A DNA stretch of 64,000 nt from a virus (Duplodnaviria; Heunggongvirae; Uroviricota; Caudoviricetes), in IMG/VR virus record IMGVR_UViG_2901984674_000003. One strand, given 5' to 3'. The translations under genes and the position numbers were made by a program. Positions 19,264 to 43,992 of the stretch are shown piece by piece; within the stretch, counting starts at the first letter, position 1; every line of letters starts with the position of its first letter. Below the pieces are notes generated by a model. The model searched no databases. It worked only from the letters and a program-made list of their open reading frames with translations, and was not told the origin of the DNA.

Positions 19264-19332
19264 AGCAGGCATGGTTGCTTTGTTAGGGTTCGATTCTCTA
19301 ACTGCTAATAGAGCTAAGCTAAAGCTTGGCTC
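19264..19332 (+). ncRNA. Degenerate tRNA-like minihelix plus hairpin unit (family 1, copy c)
   Basis: GCAGGcatggttgct...GGGTTCGATTCtc...CTGCT followed by a small hairpin; same architecture as the copies below. Confidence 0.35.
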
Positions 19333-19397
19333 AAGGTTGCAAACATTGTTTGCATCGCTCCTTTCGTTTTATATGTTACTTTACTTACTAACTGGGT

Positions 19398-19467
19398 GTG
19401 GCACGCATGGTTGCTATAATAACGGTTCGATTCCGTTAGTGCCAATAGGGTTGCCATAGACCCTATT
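19398..19467 (+). ncRNA. tRNA-like minihelix (acceptor stem plus T-arm, no D or anticodon arms) followed by a short hairpin (family 1, copy a)
   Basis: TGGCAC gcatggttgctataata ACGG-TTCGATT-CCGT ta GTGCCAA, then ATAGGGttgccatagaCCCTAT. Confidence 0.55.
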
Positions 19468-19495
19468 CTCCTTTATTTTATTGAATTAATTAAAT

Positions 19496-19572
19496 TGGTT
19501 GGCAGAATGGTTGCATCAAGGTTCAAGTCCTTGGCTGCCAATAGGGTTTGCCATAAACCCTTATAGATTGCG
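19496..19572 (+). ncRNA. tRNA-like minihelix plus hairpin (family 1, copy b)
   Basis: TGGCAG aatggttgcat CAAGG-TTCAAGT-CCTTGG CTGCCA, then AGGGTTTgccataAAACCCT. Confidence 0.5.
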
Positions 19573-19769: not shown

Positions 19770-20933
19770 GTGAAAATGATGATTCGAGTTCAGAAGGTAA
19801 GACTTTATCCAAATCAAACGATGAAAAAGGTGCTTGATGATCTATGTGATTATCGTAGATACTGTTGGAATCAAGGCTTAGCTTTATGGAATGATATGTA
19901 TGATAGTTCTTTGATTTTAGATGATAAAAAGTTAAAACCTAGTGAACACAAGGTTCGTAATGAGTTAGTATCTAATAAAGAAGACTGGCAATATCAATTA
20001 TCAGCTCGTTGTTTGCAATTAGCGATTTCCGATTTAGGTAAAGCTTGGAGTAAGTTTTTTAATAAATCACAAGTTGACTGGGGTAAGCCAAAATTCAAAT
20101 CTAAAAAAGCTCCTAGACAAGGGTTTAAAACTGATAGAGCTAAGATTATCAATGGTAAGCTAAGGCTTGACAAACCACACGGAATCAAAACTTGGTATGA
20201 TATTAGTTTTAAAGGTGCTAAGAGTTTAGATGGTGATTTAAAAGTTATCTCAGTTTACCGTGAAAATGGCAAGTACTGGGCTAGTTTACCTTTTGAAGTT
20301 GAAATAGCCAAGAAAACTAAAACTGGTAAGAAAACAGCAGTTGATATTAATGTCGGTCATTTTAACTATACCGAAGGTAAAGTTAATACACTACCTAATC
20401 ATTTAAGAAAACTCTATAAACGTATCAAACATTACCAACGTCAGTTAGCTAAAAAACGTGTCGTTAATGGAAGAAAAGCTACTCAATCGCATAATTATGT
20501 TAAAACGAGAGCCAAGTTACAACGTGATTATCGTAAAGTAACTAATATCCAACATGATATTGTGCATAAATTTACAACTAAATTAGCAAGTGATTACGAT
20601 AAGATAGCCATTGAAAATTTAGCAGTGAAGAAAATGCAGATGACGCACGTTGCATCTAAAGGCTTACAAAGATCATTATTTGGCTATTTTAGACAAATAT
20701 TAGCTTATAAAGCCGATTGGTATGGTAAGAAAATAGTCTTAGCAAGTCAATTTTATCCAAGCACACAAAGATGTTCCAAATGTGGTTATATTAAGACTGG
20801 CGAAGATAAAATTGGTCTTGATGGAAACCAAAAACATAAGACTAAACATAATGAATATATTTGTTATGAATGTGGTTCGGTTATGGATAGAGATGAAAAT
20901 GCAGTAAAAAATCTTCTGGCTTTAATAGCTTAG
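19770..20933 (+). CDS. tnpB: TnpB (IS605 OrfB family), copy 2
   Basis: 387-aa ORF with RuvC-I VDINVGH, RuvC-II IAIENL, a CSKCG...CYECG zinc finger and RuvC-III DRDENAVKNL. A hairpin-rich 3' flank at 20934-21060 is the likely right end or omega-RNA. Confidence 0.85.
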   Translation: MKMMIRVQKVRLYPNQTMKKVLDDLCDYRRYCWNQGLALWNDMYDSSLILDDKKLKPSEHKVRNELVSNKEDWQYQLSARCLQLAISDLGKAWSKFFNKSQVDWGKPKFKSKKAPRQGFKTDRAKIINGKLRLDKPHGIKTWYDISFKGAKSLDGDLKVISVYRENGKYWASLPFEVEIAKKTKTGKKTAVDINVGHFNYTEGKVNTLPNHLRKLYKRIKHYQRQLAKKRVVNGRKATQSHNYVKTRAKLQRDYRKVTNIQHDIVHKFTTKLASDYDKIAIENLAVKKMQMTHVASKGLQRSLFGYFRQILAYKADWYGKKIVLASQFYPSTQRCSKCGYIKTGEDKIGLDGNQKHKTKHNEYICYECGSVMDRDENAVKNLLALIA

Positions 20934-21445
20934 AAATATTATGGGGTGGGCTTACACCCTCAAGCTATCAGAGTTAGTCAATGTCATTACCCTCTAGTTA
21001 GGATATGGGAATACTAATGTTGACGGTAGTAAATAAAATTTAGGAAGGGAAAAATGTATTCTTTCTAATAATATAGAAATAATAGATATTTTTCTATATT
21101 ATTCTAATTTTATATAGCAGTAAGAGATGCGAATATTAATAATTTTCTAGTTTTTTTGAATAAATTATATCAAATGATACTACTTAAAAATACACTTCAC
21201 TCAACCTAATGGAGTTAACCAGTCAACAAGCTTTTAGAATTAATTCTAAAAGCTCTTGTGGACAACTTTACAACTCATTTGGCAGTCGTGCTTTGTTTCA
21301 AAAATCATTTGTAAGCTTCTTAAATTAGAAATTTAAGTTTAGCTTAGCTGGAACTAATCCGATTCCATCTGTACCATCAGTAAAAGCATTCGGTACTACT
21401 TTTTTAATATTTGTAAGATTCTTTATATTTCATTCGACTTACAAG

Positions 21446-21493
21446 TTGGCACGCATGGTTGCTGTAATAACGGTTCAATTCCGTTAGTGCTAA
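21446..21493 (+). ncRNA. tRNA-like minihelix (family 1, copy d), fused directly to scaffold S1
   Basis: TTGGCAC gcatggttgctgtaata ACGG-TTCAATT-CCGT ta GTGCTAA, followed by 'ttg' and then GAGGACGCTTG... Confidence 0.55.
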
Positions 21494-21496
21494 TTG

Positions 21497-21636
21497 GAGG
21501 ACGCTTGTTCTTGACAGCTCGGTAAATATTTCTAGCCTCTACGGTGTAACGTTGGTTAATCTAACGGTAAAACATCGCAAGCATGGAAAGTTCCCAAGAA
21601 GCTTGTGTCACTATTAAATACAGTTAGAAAACAACG
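21497..21636 (+). ncRNA. Conserved ~140-nt RNA scaffold S1 (tracrRNA/omega-RNA-like), start GAGGACGCTTGTTCTTGACAGCTCGG and internal GTTCCCAAGAAGCTT box
   Basis: One of six paralogous copies (21497, 23281, 33711, 34380, 36074, 37098). Each lies between a tRNA-like element and a repeat array. Confidence 0.6.
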
Positions 21637-21861
21637 GTTATGAACCTAGGTTAAATGACATAGGTGTAAGACCAGCAGTGTAAAAGCTTAAAAGCTGTTG
21701 TTGTTTTGAACTTAGGTTGAATGATGTAGGTTGAAGACTATATAAAATCTAGCATAGAAACTCTTGCATTTTGAACCTAGTTAAAATGACGTAAGTATAA
21801 GACAGAATACTGTATAGAGAGTTATGTTCTGAACTTAGCTAAAACAAACATAAGATAAGAC
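21637..21861 (+). CRISPR. CRISPR-like array A1: 4 repeats (36, 36, 35 and 33 nt, increasingly degenerate distally) with 30, 30 and 25-nt spacers
   Basis: The repeats are GTTATGAACCTAGGTTAAATGACATAGGTGTAAGAC, GTTTTGAACTTAGGTTGAATGATGTAGGTTGAAGAC, TTTTGAACCTAGTTAAAATGACGTAAGTATAAGAC and CTGAACTTAGCTAAAACAAACATAAGATAAGAC. The spacers are unique. Confidence 0.7.
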
Positions 21862-22074: not shown

Positions 22075-22335
22075 TGCCTTATTATATAAACTCCGTCAAC
22101 AGTAACCACCTACTAAAGTAGGTAACTTGTAGTAATACAAGTTTTGTTGTCTAGACTAAGTTCTTAGAGAACTACGTTATTTCAGTGATCATACCTAGAA
22201 ATGGTACCCTAGTTTCTAGCTCTATGAAGGCTCTGTAAACAAGCATAAGGTTAATGTGCTAGTCAACCTTGTAATAAGCTGAAATAACATTGTCGAAGGG
22301 TAACCACATGTATTTATTAACTCTGATAAATACGT
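22075..22335 (+). ncRNA. Orphan IscB omega-RNA-like scaffold (copy B) with no adjacent iscB ORF
   Basis: About 70% identical over about 240 nt to the region immediately upstream of iscB at 42370-42633. Shared blocks include CGTCAACAG(T)AACCACC(T)ACTAAAGTAGGT..CTTGTAG.AATACAAGTT and CGAAGGGTA(A)CCAC. The 5' flank (guide position) differs. Confidence 0.6.
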
Positions 22336-23215: not shown

Positions 23216-23277
23216 TAGCGATGTAGCTTAACGGTAGAGCAAGGCATGGGATACAGGTTCGACTCCTGTCATCGCTA
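23216..23277 (+). ncRNA. tRNA-like element (family 2, copy l): acceptor stem, D-arm and T-arm present, but the anticodon arm is collapsed to 13 nt. Fused to scaffold S2.
   Basis: TAGCGAT g TAGCTTAACGGTAGAGC aaggcatgggata CAGG-TTCGACT-CCTG tc ATCGCTA, followed by 'ttg' and then AAGGACGCTTG. Confidence 0.55.
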
Positions 23278-23280
23278 TTG

Positions 23281-23441
23281 AAGGACGCTTGTTCTTGACA
23301 GCTTGGTAAACATCTCTAACCTCTGCATAATCGCAACTTGCATTAGTTAGTTAGCGATTATGTAAGTCTAAAGAGTTCCCAAGAAGCTTATGTCAAAGTT
23401 AAATATAGGTTTTGAGCCTAGTTGAAAGCATAAGCTAAGAC
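23281..23441 (+). ncRNA. Scaffold S2 plus a single degenerate repeat (GGTTTTGAGCCTAGTTGAAAGCATAAGCTAAGAC). The guide position runs into the RBS and start of ORF 23462.
   Basis: Paralogous to S1, S3, S5 and S6. The lone repeat ends at 23441 and is followed by TAAATGATTATATCAAGGAGGTGGTT, which is the 5'UTR and GTG start of the next gene. Confidence 0.5.
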
Positions 23442-23461
23442 TAAATGATTATATCAAGGAG

Positions 23462-24217
23462 GTGGTTAAAATCATTACTCGAGATTATGCAATCAAAAAA
23501 TTCAACGCAATTTTAAACAATGTTAATAACGGTGGCACTGACGTATATGAAGTAACCAGTGCCAATATTTTTAGCTTATCTAAGGCTTTAAAATACATCA
23601 ATCAAGTAGATCCTAACACGGTTTTGTGGCAGCATACACCAACGCATCACGTAGCTTGTGTGTACGTAAAACAAAACACAGGCTTTGCTTATAACCGAGA
23701 TTATTTAGACTTGATTGCTAACGGTATCGACAGTGAAGAAAAGTTTAGAGAAGCTTGGCGACAAAGGAATGGCAAAAATACGAGGGGGCATTTTCCTGCA
23801 ATTGAAAAGAGTGCTACTAAAAGCCAACGAGTTAAGCATGAATCTTACATTGTTGCTGACTTAAATTCAGAAAATCCTAACTCTAAGATTCCAGGTAGCC
23901 TAAGTCCTAATCACGTTGATAGAACACACTTAATTTCATCGCAGATTACAGGCATTGAAAGACACAAGGGTTTACTTATTGATTTTGACAGTTGGCTAAA
24001 CCGTACACCAATGAACACGTTTGAAACTTACATTTTACGTATGTCAAACAAGCAAGACATTATTTGGTTAGCGTTTGTTTGGAGAGAAAACGATGGTTTA
24101 CATTGGAAGTACACAATGCTAGATAACCAAGGTACGATTCTACGTGAACGAGAATGGATAGACGATCGTTGGACTTACATTTGGAAATACGACCCTTATC
24201 AAGAAAATATCGACTAG
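23462..24217 (+). CDS. Hypothetical protein, possibly a non-specific nuclease-like fold (weak)
   Basis: 251 aa with a GTG start after an AAGGAGG RBS. VDRTHLISSQ...LN loosely resembles the DRGH motif of EndA/NucA-type nucleases. Low-confidence assignment. Confidence 0.4.
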   Translation: MVKIITRDYAIKKFNAILNNVNNGGTDVYEVTSANIFSLSKALKYINQVDPNTVLWQHTPTHHVACVYVKQNTGFAYNRDYLDLIANGIDSEEKFREAWRQRNGKNTRGHFPAIEKSATKSQRVKHESYIVADLNSENPNSKIPGSLSPNHVDRTHLISSQITGIERHKGLLIDFDSWLNRTPMNTFETYILRMSNKQDIIWLAFVWRENDGLHWKYTMLDNQGTILREREWIDDRWTYIWKYDPYQENID

Positions 24218-29751: not shown

Positions 29752-32700
29752 GTGACACAATTGCTAACAAAACCAGAAGATAAAAAAGTAAATGATGCAA
29801 TTAATAAATTAAACTCGCAAGAGTACGTAGGAGTTTTAAATAATTTAGCATCATCTGTAATGAGGCAGACAATCTCTGCACCAAATGAAGCAACAGTTGC
29901 CTCTATATTTGAAAGAGAGTTGTACTATTTTGTTAAAAAAGAATTTGATATTACATTAAATATAGAAAAAGAAGTGACTTCCCAAGACCTTGCTATCCAT
30001 AATTTCAAAGGAAGAATTGATGCTATTACGACAAATTTAGTTATCGAGTATAAAAAGCCAGAGAAGTTACGCAAAGACAAAGATATAAGAAAAGCTCAAA
30101 CGCAGTTATCAGACTACTTAAAACAATTGCGGAAAAATAACGAAAACTATTTTGGAATTATTACTGACGGAAGTTTTTATGTCAGTGTCTACTTTATAAA
30201 AGGCAGTTTAAAGTATGATGCGATACGTCAAATTGACGGAGCTTTTTTCATTACTTTGATAAAATCAATTTTAGGCACTAATAAGAAGCAATTAGTTTCT
30301 CGGAATATTATTGACGATTTTTCTCTTGAGGGTCACTCAGTTAGTGAACTTAGTAATCTTCAAAAAGAGTTGTTTAGATGCTTAAATAATGAAATGAAAT
30401 CTGAAAAGGTACTAATGCTATTTGACGAATGGATGGACATCTTTCACTTAAGTTTTAATGATGATGGGAAAAGTAATACGATTATGGAGCGTAGGGATTC
30501 TCTTTCTAAGGTTTTAGGTGTCCCTATCGAAAATAACGAACAAGAGTACCAAGGACTTTTTGCGTTGCAAACGGCATATGCCATTTTGGTTAAATGCTTT
30601 GCCTTAAAAATTATTCCTAAAATTGGTTTCAACAGTGATATAGTTTATTTTTCTGATTTATTGGAACAATCACCTAATAATATAAAAAAACTATTTTCTC
30701 AAGTTGAAGATGGCTACACTTTTAATGCGAGCAATATAATCAATCTTATTGAAGGTGATTTCTTTTCTTGGTATCTTGATGATTCTATTTGGTCAGAATC
30801 AATTGCACAATCAATTAAATCAATCCTTGTTAAGATAAACTCTTATTCAGACGCATCTTTATCATATCAGTTTGAAACACTAGATTTATTCAAAGAACTT
30901 TATATGAATGTAATGCCCCAACCTGTACGAAAAGCTTTTGGGGAGGTCTTTACTCCAGATTGGTTGGCTGATAATGTTGTTACAACCTGTTTAGAAATGA
31001 TTGATAATGAACAATGGACTTTTCTTGACCCAACATCAGGTTCAGGCACTTTTGTTTTTAAGGCAATTGAAAAAATTGTGGAAAGATTACTTCTTGATGG
31101 AAGAAGTAATAAGTATATTTTAGAACAAATACTCTCTCGAGTACACGGTATAGATTTATCACCGTTATCTGTTCTAACAGCTAGAGTTAGCTTTTTATTA
31201 GCAATTAGACCATTTATTGATGATAATAATATGGAAATCGAGATTCCAATATATCTAGGTGACTCTGCCCGTCTACCCTTAATAACTAAATTTAACGATA
31301 AGTCTTTTGTCTCATATAGTATTGCCACACGTCAGGGAGACATTAATTTAACATTACCATTGAGCTTTGTTGAATCTCCTGATTTTGTTAGAACTGTAAG
31401 ACAATGGCAAATGTTAGTAAAAGCAGAACACGTTGATTTACTTTCTAACGCAATAAAAAAGCAATTTGCTTGCGATGAAGATATTAATCATTTTGAAAAG
31501 GAAATACTATCATTCAGTAATCAATTAGTTTCGCTTCATAAAAAAATTGGGACGGAATATGGATTAAAGTTATTACAAACTTTATTTTACCAGCACGGAT
31601 AAAGAATATTGATATTATTGCTGGTAATCCGCCATGGGTTAAATGGGAAAATCTTCCCTCAATGTATGCAAATAAGATTAAGAATGTTGCTGGTGAAAGA
31701 GAACTATTTTCTAAAAAGAATAAGGGCCTAGGTGGGGGAATTAACTTAAATCTTGCAGCCCTTATATCGAATGTAACCGCAGATAATTGGTTAAGTAATG
31801 AAGGGGTTCAAGCGTTCTTGATGCCAGATACTTTCTTAAATTCCGATTCATATGAAGGTTGGAGAAATTTCCCAAGTACAAAAGAAAATAGTATGTTTTT
31901 AGCTAGAATAGATGATTGGTCAAATTCAGGTTCTCCATTTAAGCCAGTACAAGAGAAGTTTTTAACGTATTTTATAGTTAAAAATCCGTATAGTTCAACT
32001 TTAGTTAAGTATAATAAAAAATTTCCTAAAGGAATGAATATTCTTGATATCAATTCAAATAAATCATGGAGAGATGTAAAGAAATACTTCTCAAAAGAAA
32101 AAGGTTTATTGGTGCAATTATCCGATTCTAGCAATAGGTTTAGTAGAATATATAATGCTACATTGGATGATGTTGAAAAGCTGAAATTATTGTATGGCCA
32201 AAATGATTATAAGCCACGCCAAGGGGTTGAATTAACACCTAGAGAAGTTTACGTTTTTGAAAAAGATGATGATGGAACTTATCGAAACCTTGATATAAAA
32301 GGTACAAAAATTAAACCCAATCATTTTGAAAAACTCAAATTTGAAAAAAATATTATAAGACCATTGCTTCAAAGTAAACAAATAGGCGCATTTTCCATAA
32401 AAAATAGAGATAACATTCAATATGGTTTCTATCCATACGACGAAAAAGCAGATATAATTCCGATGGAAGCTTTGGCTGATAAATATCCTGCGATGTTAAA
32501 TTATCTCCTTGAACAAAAAGAGTTTATTGATAAGCAATCTGAAAGAAGTAAAACTATGTCCAGAGGTAGTGAATTTTATGCTCTCTCCAAAGTCGGAAGT
32601 TATACATCTTTTAAATATGCAGTTGCATTTCGGGATAATACTAAGATGGTGGCATCGTTTATAGACAACTCAAAAGATGGAATGATACCTGTAAAACATG

Positions 32701-33005
32701 CACCTTTTATTAGTGTCGATAAAAATGGTATACCCTTAACTAAAGATGAAGCAAAATATTTAACTGGGGTTATGAATATGCCAATAGTAAATACGTATTT
32801 TAAGACGACTTATTCTGATCGTTCATTTAGTATTAATTTTGATATGATGATACCAAAATATAAAAAGAATAAATTTCAAAAAGAAATTGTTAAATTAGTT
32901 ACATTTGCTTTGAATAGCAATAATGAGAACGAAAAAAAAGAGATTTCTAAACAAATTGAAGTTTTATATTTTGACATGTTAGATGAAATGGGAAAAGGAA
33001 GGTAA
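29752..33005 (+). pseudogene. Type IIG (MmeI-like) restriction-modification enzyme split into two ORFs (29752..31602 and 31542..33005) by a -1 frameshift at an A7 tract (31540-31546)
   Basis: ORF1 carries a PD-ExK-like motif (RIDAI...VIEYK) and SAM-binding motif I (FLDPTSGSGTFV). ORF2's frame opens at 31542 and encodes IIAGNPPW (motif IV) upstream of its first ATG (31662). Inserting one A in the A7 run fuses the frames into ...HKKNWDGIWIKVITNFILPARIKNIDIIAGNPPW.... Confidence 0.6.
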
Positions 33006-33066: not shown

Positions 33067-33494
33067 ATGCTCTTTGTGTAAACTGGTATATAGTTCCCAT
33101 AAAAAAAGCTAATCATGATTTTAAATAATCATAACTAGCTTATACACCACAATAGTCTTAAACATTCACGCTTGAGGGCAAGCAGGTCGCAACTGTTTGT
33201 CCTCTTTTCATATACAATAATACATGGCATGGATCCAAAAGTAAAGAAAAACAAAAGAAGATATACAAGCTATTATAGACTTTGCTAACAAACAACTAAA
33301 AAAACGATACTAGAATGTTATTAACACATTGCAGTAGTTTATGTTAAAATAGAACTAGCAAAAAACAGTTAAGGCTCCTTAATGTTTGTTTTGCTGTTGA
33401 AAAAGAAAGTCACATCTAGGGTTACCTAAGCTTGTGGCTTTTTTTATTTTTTAACTTTTTTGAATTTTATTTTAAAAAAGTATACAAAAACATT

Positions 33495-33523
33495 TGACTT
33501 AGAGTGTGAGATAGTGTATCATA
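33495..33523 (+). promoter_or_regulatory. Sigma-70-type promoter driving the tRNA-like/scaffold/array locus
   Basis: TTGACT, a 17-nt spacer, then TATCAT, about 135 nt upstream of tRNA-like element m. Confidence 0.45.
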
Positions 33524-33657
33524 ATAAACGTAAGGCAAAGGGTTAAGCCTACAGGGACATCAGTAAACTACATGTAAGCCTCTATCGTTCCTGTAAGCAT
33601 TAGCACAAGCCTTATAATCTTAACTTTATCTTTATTCATTTATGTACATTTTATGTG

Positions 33658-33707
33658 TAGCGATGCCAAACGGTAGATCAATGCAGGTGCAATTCCTGCC
33701 ATCGCTA
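33658..33707 (+). ncRNA. tRNA-like minihelix (family 2, copy m; acceptor plus T-arm), fused to scaffold S3
   Basis: TAGCGATG ccaaacggtagatcaat GCAGG-TGCAATT-CCTGC CATCGCTA, followed by 'ttg' and then GAGGACGCTTG. Confidence 0.5.
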
Positions 33708-33710
33708 TTG

Positions 33711-33852
33711 GAGGACGCTTGTTCTCGACAGCTTGGTTAATATCTTTGACCTCTGTATAATCGCAAATTGCATTAGTTTGTTTACGATTATGCAAGTCTG
33801 AAGAGTTCCCAAGAAGCTTATGCCACAATTAAATACAGGTTAGAAAATAACG
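33711..33852 (+). ncRNA. Scaffold S3 (tracrRNA/omega-RNA-like)
   Basis: GAGGACGCTTGTTCTCGACAGCTTGG...GAGTTCCCAAGAAGCTTATG...AAATACAGGTTAGAAAATAACG. Confidence 0.6.
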
Positions 33853-34284
33853 GTTCTGAACCTAGGCTAAATGACATAGGTTGAAGACTTACGGTAGAAT
33901 GTATCTTCAATTTTTCTAGTTCTGAACCTAGGCTAAATGACATAGGTTGAAGACGCTACTACTCATTGTGAACTTAAACTGGTTGTTCTGAACCTAGGCT
34001 AAATGACATAGGTTGAAGACAGTACTAGCGGCTCATCTGCATATATACTAGTTCTGAACCTAGTTGAATTGACATAGGTGTAAGACCATTGAAGTTCGTA
34101 TGGTGGATATCATCTAGTTCTGAACCTAAGTTAAATAACATAGGTGTAAGACATAGGTTTAATGATTGCTCCAATGGTTGAAGTTCTGAGCCTAAGTTAA
34201 ATGGCATAGGTGTAAGACTCACGTTTATGTGAGTGATTATAATTCACAGTTCTGAGCCTAAGTTAAATGACATAGGTGCAAGAC
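33853..34284 (+). CRISPR. CRISPR-like array A3: 7 direct repeats of 36 nt separated by six unique 30-nt spacers, at an exact 66-nt period
   Basis: Repeats start at 33853, 33919, 33985, 34051, 34117, 34183 and 34249. Consensus is GTTCTGAACCTAGGCTAAATGACATAGGTTGAAGAC, with 1-5 nt drift in distal units. The repeat contains the palindrome AACCTAGGTT and a potential CCTAGG/CATAGG hairpin. Spacers are non-repetitive and differ in GC content from one another. Confidence 0.85.
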
Positions 34285-34314
34285 TGAAATCATGGGCTTA
34301 ATTAAAGTCAAAAC

Positions 34315-34376
34315 AACGATGTAGCTCAATGGTAGAGCAAAGCGAGGCGACGTAGGTTCGATTCCTACCATCGTTA
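34315..34376 (+). ncRNA. tRNA-like element (family 2, copy n; D-arm and T-arm present, anticodon arm reduced to 13 nt), fused to scaffold S4
   Basis: AACGATG TAGCTCAATGGTAGAGC aaagcgaggcgac GTAGG-TTCGATT-CCTAC CATCGTT a, followed by 'ttg' and then GAGGGTGCTTG. Confidence 0.55.
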
Positions 34377-34379
34377 TTG

Positions 34380-34505
34380 GAGGGTGCTTGCTCTTCACAG
34401 TTTGGTTAACATCTTCGCAAACAAAGTTGCTGATTGCATTTCTTTGTTGAAGAGTTCCCAAAAAGCGCTGATAGCACAAATAAAGACGTCCATTGTGGAA
34501 GACTA
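34380..34505 (+). ncRNA. Divergent scaffold S4 plus one degenerate repeat (...CCATTGTGGAAGAC), immediately upstream of tnpB-3
   Basis: GAGGGTGCTTGCTCTTCACAGTTTGG...GAGTTCCCAAAAAGCGCTG is paralogous to the other scaffolds at about 75% identity. Confidence 0.45.
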
Positions 34506-34544
34506 ATGTAGTGTAGTCAGCTGAAAGACTATACATAAATTACG

Positions 34545-36026
34545 TTGGTGTTTAAAAAGGAGTTGGAAAAAATGGAAGAAAAAGTTTTAGAAAGTCGTAG
34601 AATTAGAATTTATCCTACTAAGGATCAACAAGCATATTTAACGTTTAATATGTTTGCTAATATCAAGATGTGGAACGCATTACTAGCTGAAGTTTATAAG
34701 CCAGTTAGTGAGTTAGATGAAGTTCAAGCTTTACCTAGAAACAAACAAAGTAAAGAAGTTTATAAACGCATTGAAAGAATGTCATGGGAAGAGCAACGTG
34801 ATTTGTTCAAAGGTTTACGTGGACTTTCGACTAAGGCTATTTACGATGCTGATGAAACTGTGTTTGAAAGTGGTTGGACTTTAAAAGACGCTGATACTAG
34901 CATGTATAGTTACACTTTACGTACTTTAAAAACAGCGATGAGCAACCATTTGAAAAACCCTAGACACTTTGGTATTCCTAGGTTTAAGACAACAATGGAC
35001 GTTGAAAATCAAGGTAGTTATACCTCAGGCGCTCATGTTTGTGAAATCAGTGAAGACGGCAAGTACCTTAGAGTAGGTAAATTGAAAAGATTTAAGTTAG
35101 GCTTAATTGAGATGGCTAATCACTATCCTAGTGACGGACGTTTGTATAAAGTAACAATTAAGCATGAATCCAGCGATACTTGGTATGTATCATTTGTGTT
35201 TGAACAAGCTGAGCATACAGTAAAACGTCCTAGAACTGGTTTAGCAGCTGGTATTGACTTAAACGTAACAGGTAACAGTCATATTGTTTTACAAGATGGT
35301 ACTAGATACCAATTGCCATATGACAAAATCAGAAAATTAGAACAAAAGATTGAAAAAGAAAACGTAAAACGTAGTCGCAAGTATGAACAATGGAAAAAAG
35401 AGGTTGCAATCATTGAAGAAGACAATAAAAAATCCTTAATTCCAAAGCATGTTCCTACTTTAGCCGAACGTAGCAATTACCAAAAGAACAAAAAGAAGAT
35501 TGCTAAGTTACATTTACGCATTAAAAACTTGAAAAAAGACTATATTAAAAAAACATGTTCAAAGCTTGCTAATGAATATGATGTAATCGTTATGGAAGAC
35601 CTAGCTGTTTCAGATATGGAAAAGAATAAATACCGTGCTAGAGCAATCACTAGATCAAACTTCCGTGAAATTAGAGATACGCTTACTTATATGATGGACT
35701 GGGCTGATAAAAAGATTGTGTTTATTGATCGTTGGTCACCAACTTCAAAGCGTTGCCATACTTGTGGTTACATTAAGCACAACCTTAAATTAAGCGACCG
35801 TAAGTGGACTTGCCCTATCTGTAATTCTCACCATGATCAAGACATAAACGCAGCTAAAAACATCTTAGATGAAGGCTTAGACTTGCTAGACAAAATGAAT
35901 GATTCTTGCAAGAAATGTGGGCATGAGCGTACGGTTATTACAACAGACGAAAAGTGGACATGTACAAAGTGTGGAGCTAAAAATAAAACCACACCTAAAG
36001 AAGAAAATAGTAGCGATGTAGCCTAA
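34545..36026 (+). CDS. TnpB/Cas12-like RNA-guided nuclease (493 aa) flanked on both sides by scaffold plus CRISPR-like array modules. Candidate type V-U-like effector.
   Basis: The TnpB-type N-terminus (RIRIYPTKDQQAYL...), RuvC-I (AAGIDLNVTG), RuvC-II (VIVMEDLAV), zinc finger CHTCG...CPICN and RuvC-III (HDQDINAAKNI), plus an extra C-terminal CKKCG...CTKCG finger. Its stop codon lies inside tRNA-like element o. Confidence 0.85.
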   Translation: MVFKKELEKMEEKVLESRRIRIYPTKDQQAYLTFNMFANIKMWNALLAEVYKPVSELDEVQALPRNKQSKEVYKRIERMSWEEQRDLFKGLRGLSTKAIYDADETVFESGWTLKDADTSMYSYTLRTLKTAMSNHLKNPRHFGIPRFKTTMDVENQGSYTSGAHVCEISEDGKYLRVGKLKRFKLGLIEMANHYPSDGRLYKVTIKHESSDTWYVSFVFEQAEHTVKRPRTGLAAGIDLNVTGNSHIVLQDGTRYQLPYDKIRKLEQKIEKENVKRSRKYEQWKKEVAIIEEDNKKSLIPKHVPTLAERSNYQKNKKKIAKLHLRIKNLKKDYIKKTCSKLANEYDVIVMEDLAVSDMEKNKYRARAITRSNFREIRDTLTYMMDWADKKIVFIDRWSPTSKRCHTCGYIKHNLKLSDRKWTCPICNSHHDQDINAAKNILDEGLDLLDKMNDSCKKCGHERTVITTDEKWTCTKCGAKNKTTPKEENSSDVA

Positions 36027-36070
36027 CGGTAAGGCAAGGTAACAGATGCAGGTTCGACTCCTACCATCGT
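36009..36070 (+). ncRNA. tRNA-like element (family 2, copy o) overlapping the last 6 codons and stop of tnpB-3; fused to scaffold S5
   Basis: TAGCGATG TAGCCTAACGGTAAGGC aaggtaacagat GCAGG-TTCGACT-CCTAC CATCGTTA, followed by 'tag' and then GAGGACGCTTG. Confidence 0.55.
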
Positions 36071-36073
36071 TAT

Positions 36074-36215
36074 AGGAGGACGCTTGTTCTCGACAGCTTG
36101 GTAAATATCTTTAACCTCTACAGTATCAGTTAGTTAATCTAGCAGAAAGATATTGCAAGTAAGAAGAGTTCCCAAGAAACTTATGTCGAAATTAAATATA
36201 GGTTAGAAAACAACG
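36074..36215 (+). ncRNA. Scaffold S5, in the position expected for the tnpB-3 omega-RNA/tracr
   Basis: GAGGACGCTTGTTCTCGACAGCTTGGTAAATATCT...GAGTTCCCAAGAAACTTATG...AAATATAGGTTAGAAAACAACG. It is 3'-adjacent to tnpB-3, as omega-RNAs are for TnpB. Confidence 0.6.
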
Positions 36216-36450
36216 GTTCTGAACCTAGGTTAAATGACATAGGTGTAAGACATACTCGTGGTGTCTAATTATAAGACGTTCGTTCTGAACCTAGGTTAAA
36301 TGACATGGGTGCAAGACCGTGCCTTCGATTCCTTCGCTTGGGAGATCGTTCTGAACCTAGGTTAAATGACATAGGTGTAAGACGTCTCAGGAGGAAAAAA
36401 TCAAAAATATGAGTTCTGAACCTAGTTAGAATGACACATAGGCGCAAGAC
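36216..36450 (+). CRISPR. CRISPR-like array A5: 4 repeats (36, 36, 36 and 37 nt) with three 30-nt spacers
   Basis: Repeats at 36216, 36282, 36348 and 36414 match GTTCTGAACCTAGGTTAAATGACATAGGTGTAAGAC, and the last is degenerate. Spacer 2 is GC-rich (CGTGCCTTCGATTCCTTCGCTTGGGAGATC) and spacer 3 resembles a gene start (CAGGAGGAAAAAATCAAAAATATGAG). Confidence 0.8.
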
Positions 36451-36479
36451 ATATAGAGGAGCCGATCAAAAAAATATTC

Positions 36480-37094
36480 AACGTTCAAATAACGCTTCAA
36501 GCATAACCGATTGCATAAGGGCTTTAATCAAGTCTTATCGGACATCTGCCTGTAATTCGTAGTAGGTATAGTCTGAGTGATAGCTTAGACAAGCCGAGAG
36601 ATGATTGGTAACAATTATCAAACCTAGTAAAAGCTAGGACGTTTGGTAGGTGTGTGGAAATGTGTGACGTTAGTGCTTTGCTAACCGTTGGCACTGGATA
36701 AAATAGACGCTCACGGTGTGAGAATAACCCATTGGCAGCTTAGTGTGGTAGCTAAGTGATGTGATGGGAATAACCAAAGACAGTGTTTGCCTTGACGTTT
36801 AGGAAACTAAGCTATAACAACGGAAACAAGAACGAGTAGGGTAATGGCATCGAGATTACAGTAATTTCGCTACTGGACTTGAAATCCACATGCGACGATT
36901 AAGACAAATAAAATAATTCTGAATGATTGCCTGAAAGTTGGTACTTATCATAGTAGCCACGTTATATAAAGCAAAAGGAAGTAGCAAGGTAGCTCCTTGT
37001 TGCTCAGACCTTTTGAAACGTTCGCATAATAAGCGGTAGCACATTGTAAGCAGAGTGAAAGCTCGTGCTTGAAGTGTTGTTTGAGCGTTAAATA
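36480..37094 (+). other. About 600-nt ORF-free, relatively GC/purine-rich region between array A5 and scaffold S6. Candidate structured ncRNA or decayed gene.
   Basis: There is no ORF of 60 aa or more on the + strand, and composition differs markedly from the AT-rich intergenic DNA nearby. It occupies the slot where the other units carry a tRNA-like element. Confidence 0.3.
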
Positions 37095-37097
37095 TTG

Positions 37098-37222
37098 GAG
37101 GACGCTTGTTCTCGACAGCTTGGTAAAAATCTCTAGCCTCTACGGTGTTAGCTAGTTAATCTAGCAATAAAGCATTGCAAGCATGGAGAGTTCCCAGGAA
37201 GCTTATGTCAAAATTAAATATA
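37098..37222 (+). ncRNA. Scaffold S6
   Basis: GAGGACGCTTGTTCTCGACAGCTTGGTAAAAATCTCTAGCCTCTACGG...GAGTTCCCAGGAAGCTTATG. It is closest to S1. Confidence 0.55.
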
Positions 37223-37380
37223 GGTTCTAAACCTAGTTGAATTGACGTAGGTGTAAGACCTTAGATTTTTAGGAGTTGTTGTTCTGAACCTAATTGAATT
37301 AGCATAGGTATAAGACGAGGCTGTCTATTTGCTAATTAAATAATAAGTTTTGAACTTAGTTAAATGGCACAAGCAAAGAC
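37223..37380 (+). CRISPR. CRISPR-like array A6: 3 repeats (37, 36 and 34 nt) with 21- and 30-nt spacers
   Basis: GGTTCTAAACCTAGTTGAATTGACGTAGGTGTAAGAC, GTTCTGAACCTAATTGAATTAGCATAGGTATAAGAC and GTTTTGAACTTAGTTAAATGGCACAAGCAAAGAC. Confidence 0.65.
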
Positions 37381-37645
37381 AGGTCATATATTCGTTAATT
37401 TAAATATAATATCAAAATTCCAATCCATAGCTAAATCCAGCTGTGGATCAAGCTTTTTTATTGACAATTGAATGAAAAATAGTAATAATGTAATTGCAGG
37501 TAGAAATACACTGACTACTTTATGCAATGTCGACATGCACGAGGCACCTAGTTGATAGGTGTTTTTTATTTGTTTTTATAAACCTGCCACAATAATAATA
37601 ACCAAACTAAAAGCCACATCTACTTTAGGTGTGGCTCAAATTCTT

Positions 37646-42349: not shown

Positions 42350-42633
42350 TGCTAGAGCGTTATGGTACGCGTCAACAGAACCACCGACTAAAGTAGGTGG
42401 CTTGTAGAAATACAAGTTGGTTGATTAGCCTAAGTTTTAAGTAACTACGTTAGGGTTGAATAGATAGGTACTTTGGAATACCACCCTAGTTCCAAACACT
42501 ACGGTTGATTATTAAACAGAGTTGAGTTCAGACTCAGTGTAATTAACATTAAACCAACCTATAACATTGGCGAAGGGTACACACGTACCAACTCTATGTT
42601 AGGTGCGAATTACGATTGAAAGGAGCTGGCATA
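42350..42633 (+). ncRNA. IscB omega-RNA (copy A): a guide-position flank plus about 250-nt scaffold immediately upstream of iscB
   Basis: The scaffold begins CGTCAACAGAACCACCGACTAAAGTAGGTGG. It is homologous to the orphan copy at 22094 and to the fragment at 2017-2047. IscB omega-RNAs are encoded 5' of the ORF. Confidence 0.6.
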
Positions 42634-43992
42634 ATGTCAGAAATTAAAAAAGTTGATTATATTTATGTAGTAGACTCCAACGGTACACCACTCATGCCAA
42701 CTTCAAGATTAGGCATGGTTCGCCGTTGGTTAAAAACAGGTCAAGCAAGATGGTTCGGAAATAGTCGTAAGACTATCCAATTTGTTAGACCTGTTACTAC
42801 AAATATTCAAAAATTAACACTAGGAGTAGATGCTGGCTTTCACTTAGGTTTATCCGTTGTAGGTAATCAACGTGAATATTATGCAGCTGAAAGCTTAAGA
42901 AAGTCAGAAAAAGATCGAATTACTAGCCGAAGAGAGTTAAGAAGAACTAGAAGGAATCGTTTAAGATACCGTAAGGCTAGATTTGATAATCGCAGACGCA
43001 AAGACGGTTGGTTAGCTCCTAGTATTCAACATAGATTAGATTTTACAATTAAAGAAATCAAACGCTTATATACGTTTTTGCCAATTACTAACTTAGTGGT
43101 TGAAGTTACACCGTTTGACAACCAAAAACTACTAAATCCAAGCATTAAAAGCTGGCAGTATCAAAAAGGCAAGATGTATGGCTTTAAGACCATTAAAGAT
43201 TACTTACTAGCTAGAGATAATTATCGTGATGCTTTAGATGGCAAACAATATCCAGCTAGTAAATTAAGAGTCCATCACTTAGTACAAAGAAAAGATGGTG
43301 GATCTAATCAGCCAGATAATTTGGTTTTACTGTCAGATGTTAATCATAATCAAGCTAATCACAATAACGGTGTCTTGGCTAAATTAAGACAAAATCGCCA
43401 AAAAAGCATCGATTATCGTGGAGCTTATTTTATGAGTATTTTAGCAACAAGATTAAGTGATTATTTTGATGAATATACAACAACTCAAGGTTATCTAACG
43501 GCTAATTTAAGACAAAAGTATCGAATTGGAAAATCGCACTTAAATGATGCGTTTATTATTGCTGGTGGAACTGATGTAACACTTAGAACAAGCAACGTTT
43601 ACTCAAGGCAAAAACTAAGAAACAACAATCGAAGTTTACAGAAGTTCTATGATGCTAAATATATTGATCGTCGTGATGGTAAACAAAAAACTGGTAAAGA
43701 GTTAAGTTCAGGTAGAACTAGACGTTCAAGAGAGCTTAATTACACCAATTTAAGACAATTTAGAAAAGAAAAAGTTAAAAAAGGTCGTGTTTCGATTAGA
43801 AGAAATCACTACCAATTAAGACCACATGATGTTGTGTTAAATACCAAAACTAACAGAATTGAAAGAGTTAAAAGTGTTAATAGTAGAGGAAAAAACGTTA
43901 TTCTTCAAACTGGTAAATCTAGCACAGTTAAAAACATTGTTAGCTTATATCATGTAAATGGAATGTTAGAAACGAAAGTGGAAAATATTTAG
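42634..43992 (+). CDS. iscB: IscB-family RNA-guided nuclease (RuvC-HNH; Cas9-ancestor type), 453 aa
   Basis: ATG 42634 after an AAAGGAG RBS (the track uses TTG 42616). The ORF has an N-terminal PLMP-like segment (VVDSNGTPLMPTSRLGMVRRWLKTGQARW), RuvC-I (GVDAGFHLGLSVVG), an Arg-rich bridge helix (RRELRRTRRNRLRYR), RuvC-II (VVEVTPFDN), an HNH-like insert (RVHHLVQRKDGGSNQPDNLVLLSDVNHNQANH, with the Cys ligands absent) and RuvC-III (SHLNDAFIIAGG). Confidence 0.8.
   Translation: MSEIKKVDYIYVVDSNGTPLMPTSRLGMVRRWLKTGQARWFGNSRKTIQFVRPVTTNIQKLTLGVDAGFHLGLSVVGNQREYYAAESLRKSEKDRITSRRELRRTRRNRLRYRKARFDNRRRKDGWLAPSIQHRLDFTIKEIKRLYTFLPITNLVVEVTPFDNQKLLNPSIKSWQYQKGKMYGFKTIKDYLLARDNYRDALDGKQYPASKLRVHHLVQRKDGGSNQPDNLVLLSDVNHNQANHNNGVLAKLRQNRQKSIDYRGAYFMSILATRLSDYFDEYTTTQGYLTANLRQKYRIGKSHLNDAFIIAGGTDVTLRTSNVYSRQKLRNNNRSLQKFYDAKYIDRRDGKQKTGKELSSGRTRRSRELNYTNLRQFRKEKVKKGRVSIRRNHYQLRPHDVVLNTKTNRIERVKSVNSRGKNVILQTGKSSTVKNIVSLYHVNGMLETKVENI

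Follow-up and report, generated by a model that had tools for sequence, protein, structure and literature searches.

A TnpB-derived nuclease gene among scaffold-array modules, tRNA-like elements and a ROOL RNA on a Ligilactobacillus salivarius megaplasmid

Introduction

Intermediates between TnpB and Cas12 were reportedly defined only in 2025, mostly from metagenomes and with heterologous assays. They are said to be known as TranC, for transposon-CRISPR intermediates, from the work of Jin et al. (Cell, 2025), with LaTranC (PDB 9jfo/9jfq) as an example. Here we describe a locus found in a stretch of 64,000 nucleotides, IMG/VR record IMGVR_UViG_2901984674_000003, which as a whole will be called the window. 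The locus contains a gene for a TnpB-derived nuclease, which lies among scaffold-like RNA elements and CRISPR-like arrays. Our interpretation, to which we assign a probability of roughly 80%, is that the locus encodes a functional system of the TranC kind that is carried by a plasmid, is TnpB-derived and type V-like, is devoid of adaptation genes and is used against competing plasmids.

TranC systems have been summarized as having repeats of 32-38 nt and arrays of few units (bioRxiv 10.64898/2026.03.27.714800). A further system that invites comparison is type IV-A3, which is carried on large plasmids, has no adaptation module, and has variable arrays with plasmid-targeting spacers; its repeats and leaders resemble those of the host type I-E system, whose Cas1-Cas2 add spacers in trans (bioRxiv 10.1101/2023.06.23.546257). 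The locus also includes a ROOL RNA. In the literature ROOL is described from mobile genetic elements, where it sits among tRNA-type elements, and we found no published function for it and no published tie to CRISPR or TnpB.

The original prediction for this locus, made from the letters of the DNA, was that it represents an intermediate between TnpB and type V CRISPR. The data presented below support this view: the scaffold model finds matches at the omega-RNA position of canonical tnpB genes, in one relative (L004) scaffold and repeat are fused, and a scaffold, an array or both adjoin the nuclease gene in all clade loci whose flanking DNA is recorded. The category as such, TranC, has been known since 2025.

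Results

Carrier and organization of the locus

The locus is carried by a megaplasmid of Ligilactobacillus salivarius. Plasmid 'unnamed2' of L. salivarius ZSA5 (NZ_CP123973.1, 166.6 kb, deposited as linear), the sister plasmid of the window and L001 in our numbering of loci, is 95% identical across the matched two-thirds of the locus, and nuclease genes of 95-98% identity are present in two IMG/VR records as well. The neighbouring genes are of plasmid type (ParA/ParM, RepA/RepB, a DnaB-type helicase, FtsK/SpoIIIE, a surface-exclusion protein and a sortase), and the GC content of the window is 35%. A phage origin was considered and rejected, as a megablast search of phages with the locus returned no match.

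The unit occupies positions 33494-37458 of the + strand and consists of four scaffolds (S3-S6), three arrays (A-C), three tRNA-like elements, one nuclease gene and one ROOL RNA. From 5' to 3' the order is promoter, tRNA-like element 1, S3, array A, tRNA-like element 2, S4 and the nuclease gene, followed by tRNA-like element 3, S5, array B, ROOL, S6, array C and a terminator-like hairpin. Two remote modules, which lie outside the coordinates of the original prediction, use the same repeat. The features are as follows (R1 is the scaffold covariance model):

21446-21861, +: remote module with a tRNA-like minihelix, scaffold S1 (21492-21636; R1, 138.4 bits) and a four-repeat array (21637-21861)
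23217-23442, +: remote module with a tRNA-like element (23217-23277), scaffold S2 (23276-23409) and a lone degenerate repeat
33494-33522, +: sigma-70-type promoter, TTGACT-17-TATCAT, 10 of 12 consensus matches
33654-33708, +: degenerate tRNA-like element 1, acceptor stem and T arm by folding; adjoins S3
33706-33852, +: scaffold S3, omega-RNA/tracrRNA-like, with a 3' anti-repeat (R1, 133.9 bits)
33853-34284, +: array A, seven 36-nt repeats and six unique 30-nt spacers
34315-34376, +: tRNA-like element 2, acceptor, D and T arms without an anticodon arm (Rfam tRNA, 52 bits; fold)
34375-34500, +: scaffold S4, degenerate, complementarity to the repeat lost; 5' leader of the nuclease mRNA (R1, 87.3 bits)
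34572-36026, +: TnpB-derived nuclease gene, 484 aa from the ATG at 34572; the open reading frame (ORF) opens with TTG at 34545
36012-36072, +: tRNA-like element 3, overlaps the nuclease stop codon and adjoins S5 (Rfam tRNA, 41.9 bits; fold)
36071-36215, +: scaffold S5 with a 3' anti-repeat (R1, 142.5 bits; hairpin with the first repeat)
36216-36450, +: array B, four repeats, the last degenerate, and three spacers
36483-37083, +: ROOL RNA, ending 10 nt 5' of S6 (Rfam RF03087, 241 bits)
37093-37223, +: scaffold S6, loop between anti-repeat and first repeat deleted (R1, 132.8 bits; alignment)
37224-37381, +: array C, three decaying repeats with spacers of 21 and 29 nt
37423-37458, +: terminator-like hairpin and T run closing the unit

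Nearly all of the elements that had been predicted (promoter, arrays, scaffolds, tRNA-like elements, nuclease) were found at the positions given for them, including the arrays of seven, four and three repeats. The six scaffold copies were all recovered by the covariance model, with starts at 21492, 23276, 33706, 34375, 36071 and 37093 and scores of 87-142 bits. The tRNA-like elements at 34315-34376 and 36012-36072 reach the Rfam tRNA threshold, and that at 33654-33708 is more degenerate. The lone repeat described after the second scaffold of the unit has to be qualified: it is very degenerate and barely recognizable, and S4, the scaffold at this place, has no anti-repeat. The predicted promoter is present. 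Promoter-like sites are not more numerous in this region than in shuffled sequences, thus the call rests on its position, which is 5' of the first module and 3' of a terminator-like hairpin.

The nuclease is closest to TnpB

The nuclease has the Pfam domains OrfB_IS605 and Cas12f1-like_TNB, the latter a zinc ribbon. The RuvC residues D238, E351 and D433 and the four zinc cysteines C404, C407, C423 and C426 are invariant across its clade. The description of the protein as a bona fide TnpB homologue with RuvC and zinc-finger parts was upheld. The original length of 493 aa was probably too long: translation most likely starts at the ATG at 34572, which is preceded by the ribosome-binding site AAGGAG and gives a protein of 484 aa, in agreement with the PGAP annotation and with the database cluster representative.

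In a database search the clade of the nuclease was small and sharply separated, with ~25 clusters of 36-95% identity and 420-509 aa. Beyond it identity falls to ~30% and the proteins are ordinary TnpBs of ~380 aa.

The solved protein closest in sequence is ISDra2 TnpB (phmmer against PDB, 8e-28). The match to LaTranC was much weaker (6e-16) and confined to the C-terminal RuvC part, that to Cas12f was ~1e-5, and Cas12n was also far behind ISDra2 TnpB. With the AlphaFold (AF2) model of the nuclease (predicted local distance difference test score, pLDDT, 81), Foldseek gave the same ranking: ISDra2 TnpB (8h1j, 6.6e-20), ISFba1 TnpB, LaTranC (9jfq, 1.4e-16; about 20% identity in the fold alignment), Fanzor2 and AsCas12f (6e-13). 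No solved Cas12f or Cas12n comes as close to the nuclease, in sequence or in fold, as TnpB does. It does not belong to the LaTranC clade, a statement that sets it apart from LaTranC alone among the 24 or more published clades. The PADLOC profiles Cas12u4 and Cas12f match the nuclease at ~1e-31 to 1e-33; they were not used for classification because they also match TnpBs generally and do not discriminate. Compared to ISDra2 TnpB the nuclease is ~75 aa longer, its N-terminal helical region is enlarged, the RuvC-I/RuvC-II helical hairpin is longer, and there is a second C-terminal zinc ribbon.

The closeness to ISDra2 TnpB would also be expected of an ordinary tnpB gene of the IS200/IS605 type that has just one omega RNA; the apparent arrays would then be non-functional tandem duplications of the right end of the insertion sequence (IS). 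This explanation, to which we return with the scaffolds and the spacers, has to contend with the absence of a tnpA gene next to the locus, with the lack of multiple IS copies, and with a clade that is small and whose members are single-copy in their mobile genetic elements.

The window does contain a second TnpB, a canonical protein of 387 aa (19770-20933) which is 28% identical to the array-linked nuclease. An Rfam Transposase-1 RNA lies directly 3' of its stop codon (19770-21023 for the whole stretch), and three T-loop motifs are located just 5' of the gene (19287-19530).

Homology of the scaffold with the TnpB omega RNA, and its anti-repeat

The scaffold is a structured element of ~145 nt. 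Ten copies from five lineages have three structures in common, namely a hairpin at the 5' end, an inner stem and a long-range stem formed by CUUGG and CCAAG, with compensatory changes in 9 of the 16 pairs. When 34 copies were aligned by fitting to the model, 95.6% of the cells were paired versus 83.4% in shuffles, double changes were seen in 13 of the 16 pairs, and the covariation score was 0.40 compared to 0.07-0.16 with slid partners. No Rfam family matched the scaffold, even at E values up to 5. The covariance model recovers every locus of the clade; in addition, among 85 loci with ordinary TnpBs of ~30% identity, seven are matched weakly (21-26 bits). These matches are all on the same strand as tnpB and ~20 nt 3' of its stop codon, which is the position of the omega RNA. 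The covariation and the matches at the omega-RNA position of canonical tnpB genes lead us to conclude that the scaffold and the TnpB omega RNA are homologous.

Over its last ~35 nt the scaffold shows complementarity to the repeat; this stretch will be called the anti-repeat. In minimum-free-energy folds it pairs with the adjoining first repeat through an 8-nt loop, thus the first unit resembles a natural single-guide RNA. The duplex between anti-repeat and repeat has energies of -16 to -25 kcal/mol in five of the six scaffolds, as against ~-10 +/- 2.7 kcal/mol in shuffles (S3, -15.8 kcal/mol versus -9.6 +/- 2.6; S5, -21.1 kcal/mol). The exception is S4, whose duplex (-7.0 kcal/mol) is no better than those of shuffles, indicating that its anti-repeat has been lost.

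Three relatives bear on the origin of the repeat. L179 (37% identity) has a repeat of unrelated sequence, yet this repeat and the anti-repeat of the same locus pair at -20.2 kcal/mol, compared to -6 to -12 kcal/mol for that anti-repeat with non-cognate repeats. In L004 the scaffold runs directly into the 3' half of the repeat and then into the guide, an arrangement that resembles an unsplit omega RNA. In L182 the terminal hairpin of the scaffold is 75-79% identical to the repeat cores (family D1). Together with the anti-repeat data these sequences fit a derivation of the repeat from the 3' end of the omega RNA. It had indeed been proposed that the repeat takes the place of this end and was then reiterated, and both the fusion in L004 and the likeness of hairpin and repeat in L182 speak for the proposal. 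The same likeness would, on the other hand, be expected from a mere duplication of omega-RNA ends of an ordinary IS.

S2 and S4, the scaffolds followed by only a lone degenerate repeat, are each located directly 5' of a protein-coding gene (window 23410-23470 and 34500-34571), so that the would-be guide spans the ribosome-binding site of that gene. This placement may reflect decay or a regulatory arrangement.

Arrays, spacer turnover and association with the nuclease clade

The repeat is 36 nt long (GTTCTGAACCTAGGTTAAATGACATAGGTGTAAGAC) and recurs with a period of 66 nt; the terminal repeats of the arrays are degenerate. All spacers are unique, with no second copy in the window, as expected of the type V-like arrays with 30-nt spacers that had been predicted. 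Apart from the arrays themselves, neither the window nor the ZSA5 plasmid contains a match to any spacer, which argues against an origin of the units from local DNA.

Four L. salivarius plasmids that are 95-98% identical (the window, L001, L017 and L018) together have 41 distinct spacers, most of which are private to one plasmid. The shared spacers (A3, A6 and B2-like) are found at the scaffold-distal ends of the arrays, whereas new spacers adjoin the scaffold. Such a polarity is expected of integrase-driven, leader-proximal acquisition, with the scaffold side as leader. It is difficult to reconcile with tandem IS ends, as are the uniqueness of the spacers and their precise length of 30 nt.

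The genomic context of the relatives was taken from exact-protein look-ups. In every relative of the nuclease with recorded flanking DNA (37-98% identity) the gene is accompanied by a scaffold, an array or both, and the clade is not one of ordinary IS-borne TnpBs. Scaffold and array are both present in L002, L004, L007, L008, L179 and L182. The repeat/spacer geometry is 36/30 in L002, L004 and L182 (65-70% identity) and in L179, 36/29 in L007 (50% identity) and 28/33 in L008 (47% identity). In L181 only an array was seen; the contig begins inside it. A protein scan of the GTDB representative genomes yielded no relative of the nuclease, and a metagenome scan just one close relative.

Two observations were made on these loci in passing. 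In the sister plasmid an IS-type element encoding a 418-aa TnpB and no TnpA occupies a spacer/repeat junction of array C (L001 9786-11345, NZ_CP123973.1 ~106722-108281), and TnpB genes of identical length occur at two more sites of NZ_CP123973.1, one of them between S1 and S2. In L008 (2787-7760) the nuclease gene is directly 3' of a gene for a 1066-aa SIR2/Dsr1-like defence protein, in a prophage-like region.

The spacers match rival plasmids

The spacers were compared with 72,556 plasmids and 50,697 phage records. Outside the arrays of the related ZSA5 plasmid, matches were found only in plasmids of Lactobacillaceae. They involve six spacers, two of them at 30/30, and for five of the six the matched plasmids belong to L. 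salivarius. Spacer A1 matches pMP1046B (29/30), A2 three megaplasmids of the pMP118 type (27-28/30), and B3 pMP118 and the corresponding megaplasmid of CECT 5713 (NC_017499.1) with one indel. A spacer of L018 matches many small mobilizable L. salivarius plasmids (30/30) and pCTN1046 (28/30), one spacer of L017 an L. salivarius megaplasmid (30/30), and another GH70-bearing plasmids of L. plantarum and relatives (28/30). None of the phage records was matched above chance level, hence phages were rejected as targets. Spacers of the non-salivarius relatives found no match in either collection.

On their 5' side the six protospacers are flanked by tttCA, tttCA, tttAC, tttTA, tttTG and gttAA. Five of them thus have TTT at positions -5 to -3, and no consensus is seen on the 3' side. 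TnpB and type V systems are arranged in this way, with a T-rich motif located 5' and a guide that is 3' of the repeat. The locus thus has the type V combination of a single RuvC-only effector, an array, and spacers against foreign DNA with a 5' motif. Several mismatches fall within the first ten positions next to the protospacer-adjacent motif (PAM); although few in number, they would agree with escape variants. The best-supported role of the locus is to exclude, or to compete with, other plasmids that share its host; rival plasmids as targets of the spacers had been overlooked in the original prediction.

Foreign matches with a consistent flank complete the case against tandem IS ends. On spacer uniqueness, turnover and foreign matches we rejected the notion that the arrays are IS debris, and we regard the ordinary-IS explanation as hardly tenable.

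It is also conceivable that the system is RNA-guided and serves to regulate or maintain its own element, by TldR- or Cas12c/m-like repression or by a homing-type maintenance of the megaplasmid. The position of the S2 and S4 modules directly before protein-coding genes could be read in this way, and several descendants of TnpB became repressors (PMC13565253). However, neither the RuvC triad nor the zinc finger varies within the clade, the matches of the spacers are in other plasmids rather than in promoters of the element itself, and S4 has lost its anti-repeat. We therefore consider a regulatory or maintenance function very improbable.

A spacer of L002 (5854-5883) is 26/30 identical to a conserved part of the ROOL gene of the same locus (5166-5195), whose copy lacks the TTT flank. 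The observation suggests mutual targeting among relatives that carry a ROOL.

Spacer acquisition and the CRISPR repeats of the host

The absence of adaptation genes from the window, noted originally, was upheld: no Cas1, Cas2, Cas4, Csn2 or Cas9, and no homologue of the type II-A cas1, cas2, csn2 or cas9 genes, was found there, and none of these five proteins is annotated across 161 kb of NZ_CP123973.1. As no integrase is encoded, acquisition must necessarily occur in trans.

A candidate donor is suggested by the repeat, which resembles that of the type II-A system of L. salivarius (GTTTCAGAAGTATGTTAAATCAATAAGGTTAAGACC) in sequence, orientation and length, the spacers being 30 nt in both. The alignment score of the two repeats is 15, compared to 3.8 +/- 1.7 for shuffles, and none of 5000 shuffles scored as high. 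The identity of the host repeat was confirmed in the cas9-cas1-cas2-csn2 locus of L090 and in the supplementary table of PMC11288051. (L090, DVII01000112.1, is binned as 'Candidatus Coprovivens excrementavium'; its repeat is identical to the L. salivarius II-A consensus, and the contig is possibly mis-binned L. salivarius.) The repeat of L008 resembles the L. salivarius type I-E repeat (score 9 versus 2.5 +/- 1.3, p ~7e-4). The situation is reminiscent of type IV-A3, which provides a precedent both for acquisition in trans and for conflict between plasmids. That the host II-A Cas1-Cas2-Csn2 proteins supply the spacers is a hypothesis to which we give roughly even odds.

The likeness to II-A arrays (36-nt repeats, 30-nt spacers, related repeat sequence, same orientation) allows another interpretation, in which the arrays are orphan II-A-like arrays that hijack the host Cas9 against rival plasmids, or act as decoys of the host II-A system, i.e. 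as an RNA anti-CRISPR, with the TnpB-like gene a bystander. Repeat mimics of phages and plasmids and viral mimics of Cas9 guides have been documented, L. salivarius included. The anti-repeat of the host trans-activating CRISPR RNA (tracrRNA), however, pairs with the plasmid repeat at only -14.3 kcal/mol, compared to -34.9 kcal/mol with its own II-A repeat, and for the plasmid anti-repeat together with the II-A repeat the value is no better than -5.9 kcal/mol. The conserved motif is 5' of the protospacer and not 3', each array has its own anti-repeat in cis on an omega-RNA-like scaffold, and the nuclease clade keeps its arrays and scaffolds even in members whose repeat has no relation to that of II-A. 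The arrays therefore lack features expected of II-A arrays, namely pairing with the II-A tracrRNA, a 3' PAM and an adjacent cas9-cas1-cas2-csn2 cluster. A simple hijack of Cas9 was rejected on the grounds of tracrRNA pairing and PAM side, and we think there is very little chance that hijacking or decoying, in any form, accounts for the locus.

tRNA-like elements and ROOL RNA at the scaffold borders

ARAGORN calls no tRNA among the tRNA-like elements. Those of the locus fold into acceptor, D and T arms only, and for the element at 23217-23277 the Rfam alignment shows 6 nt in place of the 17-nt anticodon arm. On this basis we rejected the possibility that they are true tRNA genes. Element 1 has a variant T loop (GGTGCAATTCC at 33686), and its counterpart in L018 (4229-4283) scores 38 bits with the Rfam tRNA model. 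In the window, L001, L017, L018 and L099 the tRNA-like elements have their 3' ends at the position where the scaffold model starts, and in L007 a tRNA-like minihelix occupies the equivalent place. The window has 16 copies of the T-loop motif GGTTCRAYYCC, compared to an expectation of 2.6; 14 of the 16 are on the + strand, and 13 of these 14 in RNA-rich stretches. RNase P and RNase Z recognize acceptor/T-arm minihelices, thus the simplest reading is that these enzymes would cut the precursor into scaffold-array modules and mRNA.

The 600-nt ORF-free region reported between arrays B and C exists; what had been missed is that it is a ROOL RNA (36483-37083). The match covers model positions 1-574 of 574 at 241 bits, the gathering score of RF03087 being 99.1. 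A ROOL followed after 10-25 nt by a scaffold is also found in L001, L017, L018 and L099, and the same succession occurs in a differently organized family of mobile genetic elements (L002, L004 and L182) with the order tRNA-Arg, ROOL, scaffold, array, nuclease, tRNAs. The ROOL of pMP118 has other neighbours, consequently the link between ROOL and scaffold is not universal.

Other features of the neighbourhood

The neighbourhood of the locus is defence-like. Directly upstream, a type IIG restriction-modification enzyme is split into two ORFs of 616 and 447 aa (window 29752-33005). The sister plasmid has a single 1081-aa gene at this place; the split may reflect inactivation or a sequencing frameshift.

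The segment 21870-23210 (+ strand) is an ORF-poor RNA island with ~8 tRNA-like minihelices (GGTTGGCACGCATGGTTGC...GGTTCGATTCC...GTGCCAAT), most of which are followed by a small hairpin, AGGGnnnnnCCCTAA. These minihelices cannot be decoding tRNAs. The island includes a full-length HEARO RNA, the omega RNA of IscB (22095-22307, 129 bits), with no IscB ORF after it, i.e. an orphan guide RNA. A second HEARO (42371-42584) is directly 5' of an intact IscB (RRXRR) gene (42616-43992).

Discussion

The anatomy of the locus suggests how a TranC-type system could work here. A single promoter at 33494 would give rise to a precursor of ~3.9 kb, extending from tRNA-like element 1 through array C to the terminator. 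Host RNase P and RNase Z would cut it where the tRNA-like elements and the 3' end of ROOL abut the scaffolds, releasing the modules and the mRNA. In the modules the complementarity predicts that the anti-repeat pairs in cis with the first repeat to form a single-guide RNA; later repeats would presumably be paired in trans by the anti-repeat, in the fashion of tracrRNA and CRISPR RNA (crRNA). Guided by the spacer that lies 3' of the repeat, the nuclease would cleave DNA with a 5' T-rich motif. Probable targets are pMP118-type megaplasmids, pMP1046B and small mobilizable plasmids, and the likely role is plasmid exclusion or competition. The arrays appear to turn over fast, new 30-nt spacers being inserted next to the scaffold by machinery acting in trans. 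The least secure step is the source of the spacers, for which the host II-A Cas1-Cas2-Csn2 proteins are suggested by the likeness of the repeats and the 36/30 geometry.

It must be noted that some of the data weigh against this interpretation. Only six protospacers were found, two of them with at least two mismatches or an indel. The alignment of the 34 scaffold copies was model-fitted and contains partly related sequences, thus its counts lean towards structure. With regard to the donor, the protospacer motif is a 5' TTT and not the 3' Cas9 PAM expected of II-A adaptation (the predicted PAM is NNaWNW, PMC11288051), so that II-A in trans would require Cas9-independent acquisition followed by selection, or else another integrase is at work. 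Compared by eye, the leader-repeat junctions of the plasmid arrays and of the host II-A array are not alike. Finally, the 36/30 geometry is also found in relatives whose repeats do not resemble that of II-A, thus geometry alone is not host mimicry.

A more far-reaching interpretation would be that the locus represents an undescribed stage in the birth of a CRISPR system. The 3' hairpin of the omega RNA would have been duplicated into repeats, whose ends converged on those of the host CRISPR (II-A in L. salivarius, or I-E-like in the lineage of L008) and so parasitize the host Cas1-Cas2; guide RNAs would mature by tRNA-processing enzymes acting at anticodon-less mimics; and ROOL, a nanocage RNA, would be a working part of the system, for example by defining the 5' end of the tracrRNA or by stabilizing or packaging guide RNAs. 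Taken jointly, and with this part for ROOL included, these propositions are in our opinion doubtful. If they were true, they would provide the first functional context for ROOL.

As far as the searchable literature shows, several properties of the locus are apparently new: the presence of several cis-fused scaffold-array modules for one nuclease, the use of ROOL and tRNA-like elements to punctuate the modules, the natural targeting of plasmids in a species that can be cultivated, and repeats that are like those of the host II-A system or, in one relative, of I-E. The practical consequence is that the biology of the system, namely its targets, its way of gaining spacers with no integrase of its own and the maturation of its guides, is directly testable, because the locus is in a cultivable bacterium, on sequenced plasmids, and has natural protospacers in known rivals. 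The nuclease is compact (484 aa) and its motif is simple and T-rich, which makes it of practical interest. The physical link between a module for an RNA-guided nuclease and ROOL, an RNA whose function has been unknown since 2017, is conserved. The system may be a natural counterpart of engineered tRNA-gRNA processing (gRNA, guide RNA) and, with type IV-A3 of class 1 as the first case, a second example, of class 2, of plasmid systems possibly borrowing host adaptation through repeat likeness.

Comparison with known systems

It is instructive to compare the locus with the systems it resembles. With IS200/IS605 TnpB (ISDra2; PDB 8h1j/8exa) it shares the closest solved sequence and fold, the 5' T-rich target-adjacent motif, and a scaffold homologous to the RNA encoded just after canonical tnpB. 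In contrast to these elements it has no transposase and no IS ends and is not multi-copy, and its guides are exchangeable 30-nt spacers in arrays instead of fixed flanking DNA.

Cas12f (V-F) and Cas12n (V-U4) have in common with the present system a small effector with RuvC and zinc finger, a tracrRNA-like scaffold, a repeat-spacer crRNA and a 5' PAM. Unlike many V-F loci, this one has no cas1, cas2 or cas4. The adaptation module of type V is thus missing, as it is in the V-U and TranC groups.

The similarity to type IV-A3 consists in carriage on a large plasmid, absence of adaptation genes, variable arrays, host-like repeats and plasmid targets. The differences are that the IV-A3 effector is a multi-subunit class 1 complex which silences rather than cuts, and that the IV-A3 PAM fits the I-E donor, whereas the 5' TTT found here does not fit the PAM of the host Cas9.

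The Haloferax 'icrRNA' is reportedly a laboratory construct flanked by tRNA-like elements, and polycistronic tRNA-gRNA arrays are said to be likewise engineered. Release by RNase P and RNase Z, on which such constructs rely, is the mechanism that we propose for the 5' ends of the scaffolds. In the searched literature we found no natural guide-RNA locus with a tRNA-flanked layout. The ROOL of the locus is a full-length, high-scoring member of RF03087 and, as usual for this family, lies in a mobile genetic element among tRNA-type elements. It differs in that here, and in at least one differently arranged family of mobile genetic elements, ROOL ends 10-25 nt before a guide-RNA scaffold.

The closest correspondence is with TranC. 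Like TranC, the locus combines a nuclease of TnpB size and fold with a short CRISPR array and no adaptation genes, and its guide is predicted from the sequence to consist of an omega/reRNA-derived tracr part and a repeat-spacer part. The first unit of each array, a cis-fused scaffold-repeat-spacer, would suit the use of both reRNA and crRNA. The differences are that six scaffold-array modules, each with the scaffold fused in cis to its array, accompany one nuclease here, and that tRNA-like elements and ROOL punctuate the modules; tRNA is not mentioned in the one follow-up study of TranC that was consulted (bioRxiv 10.64898/2026.03.27.714800). By the genomic features that define the group, as far as these can be predicted, the locus qualifies as TranC-type.

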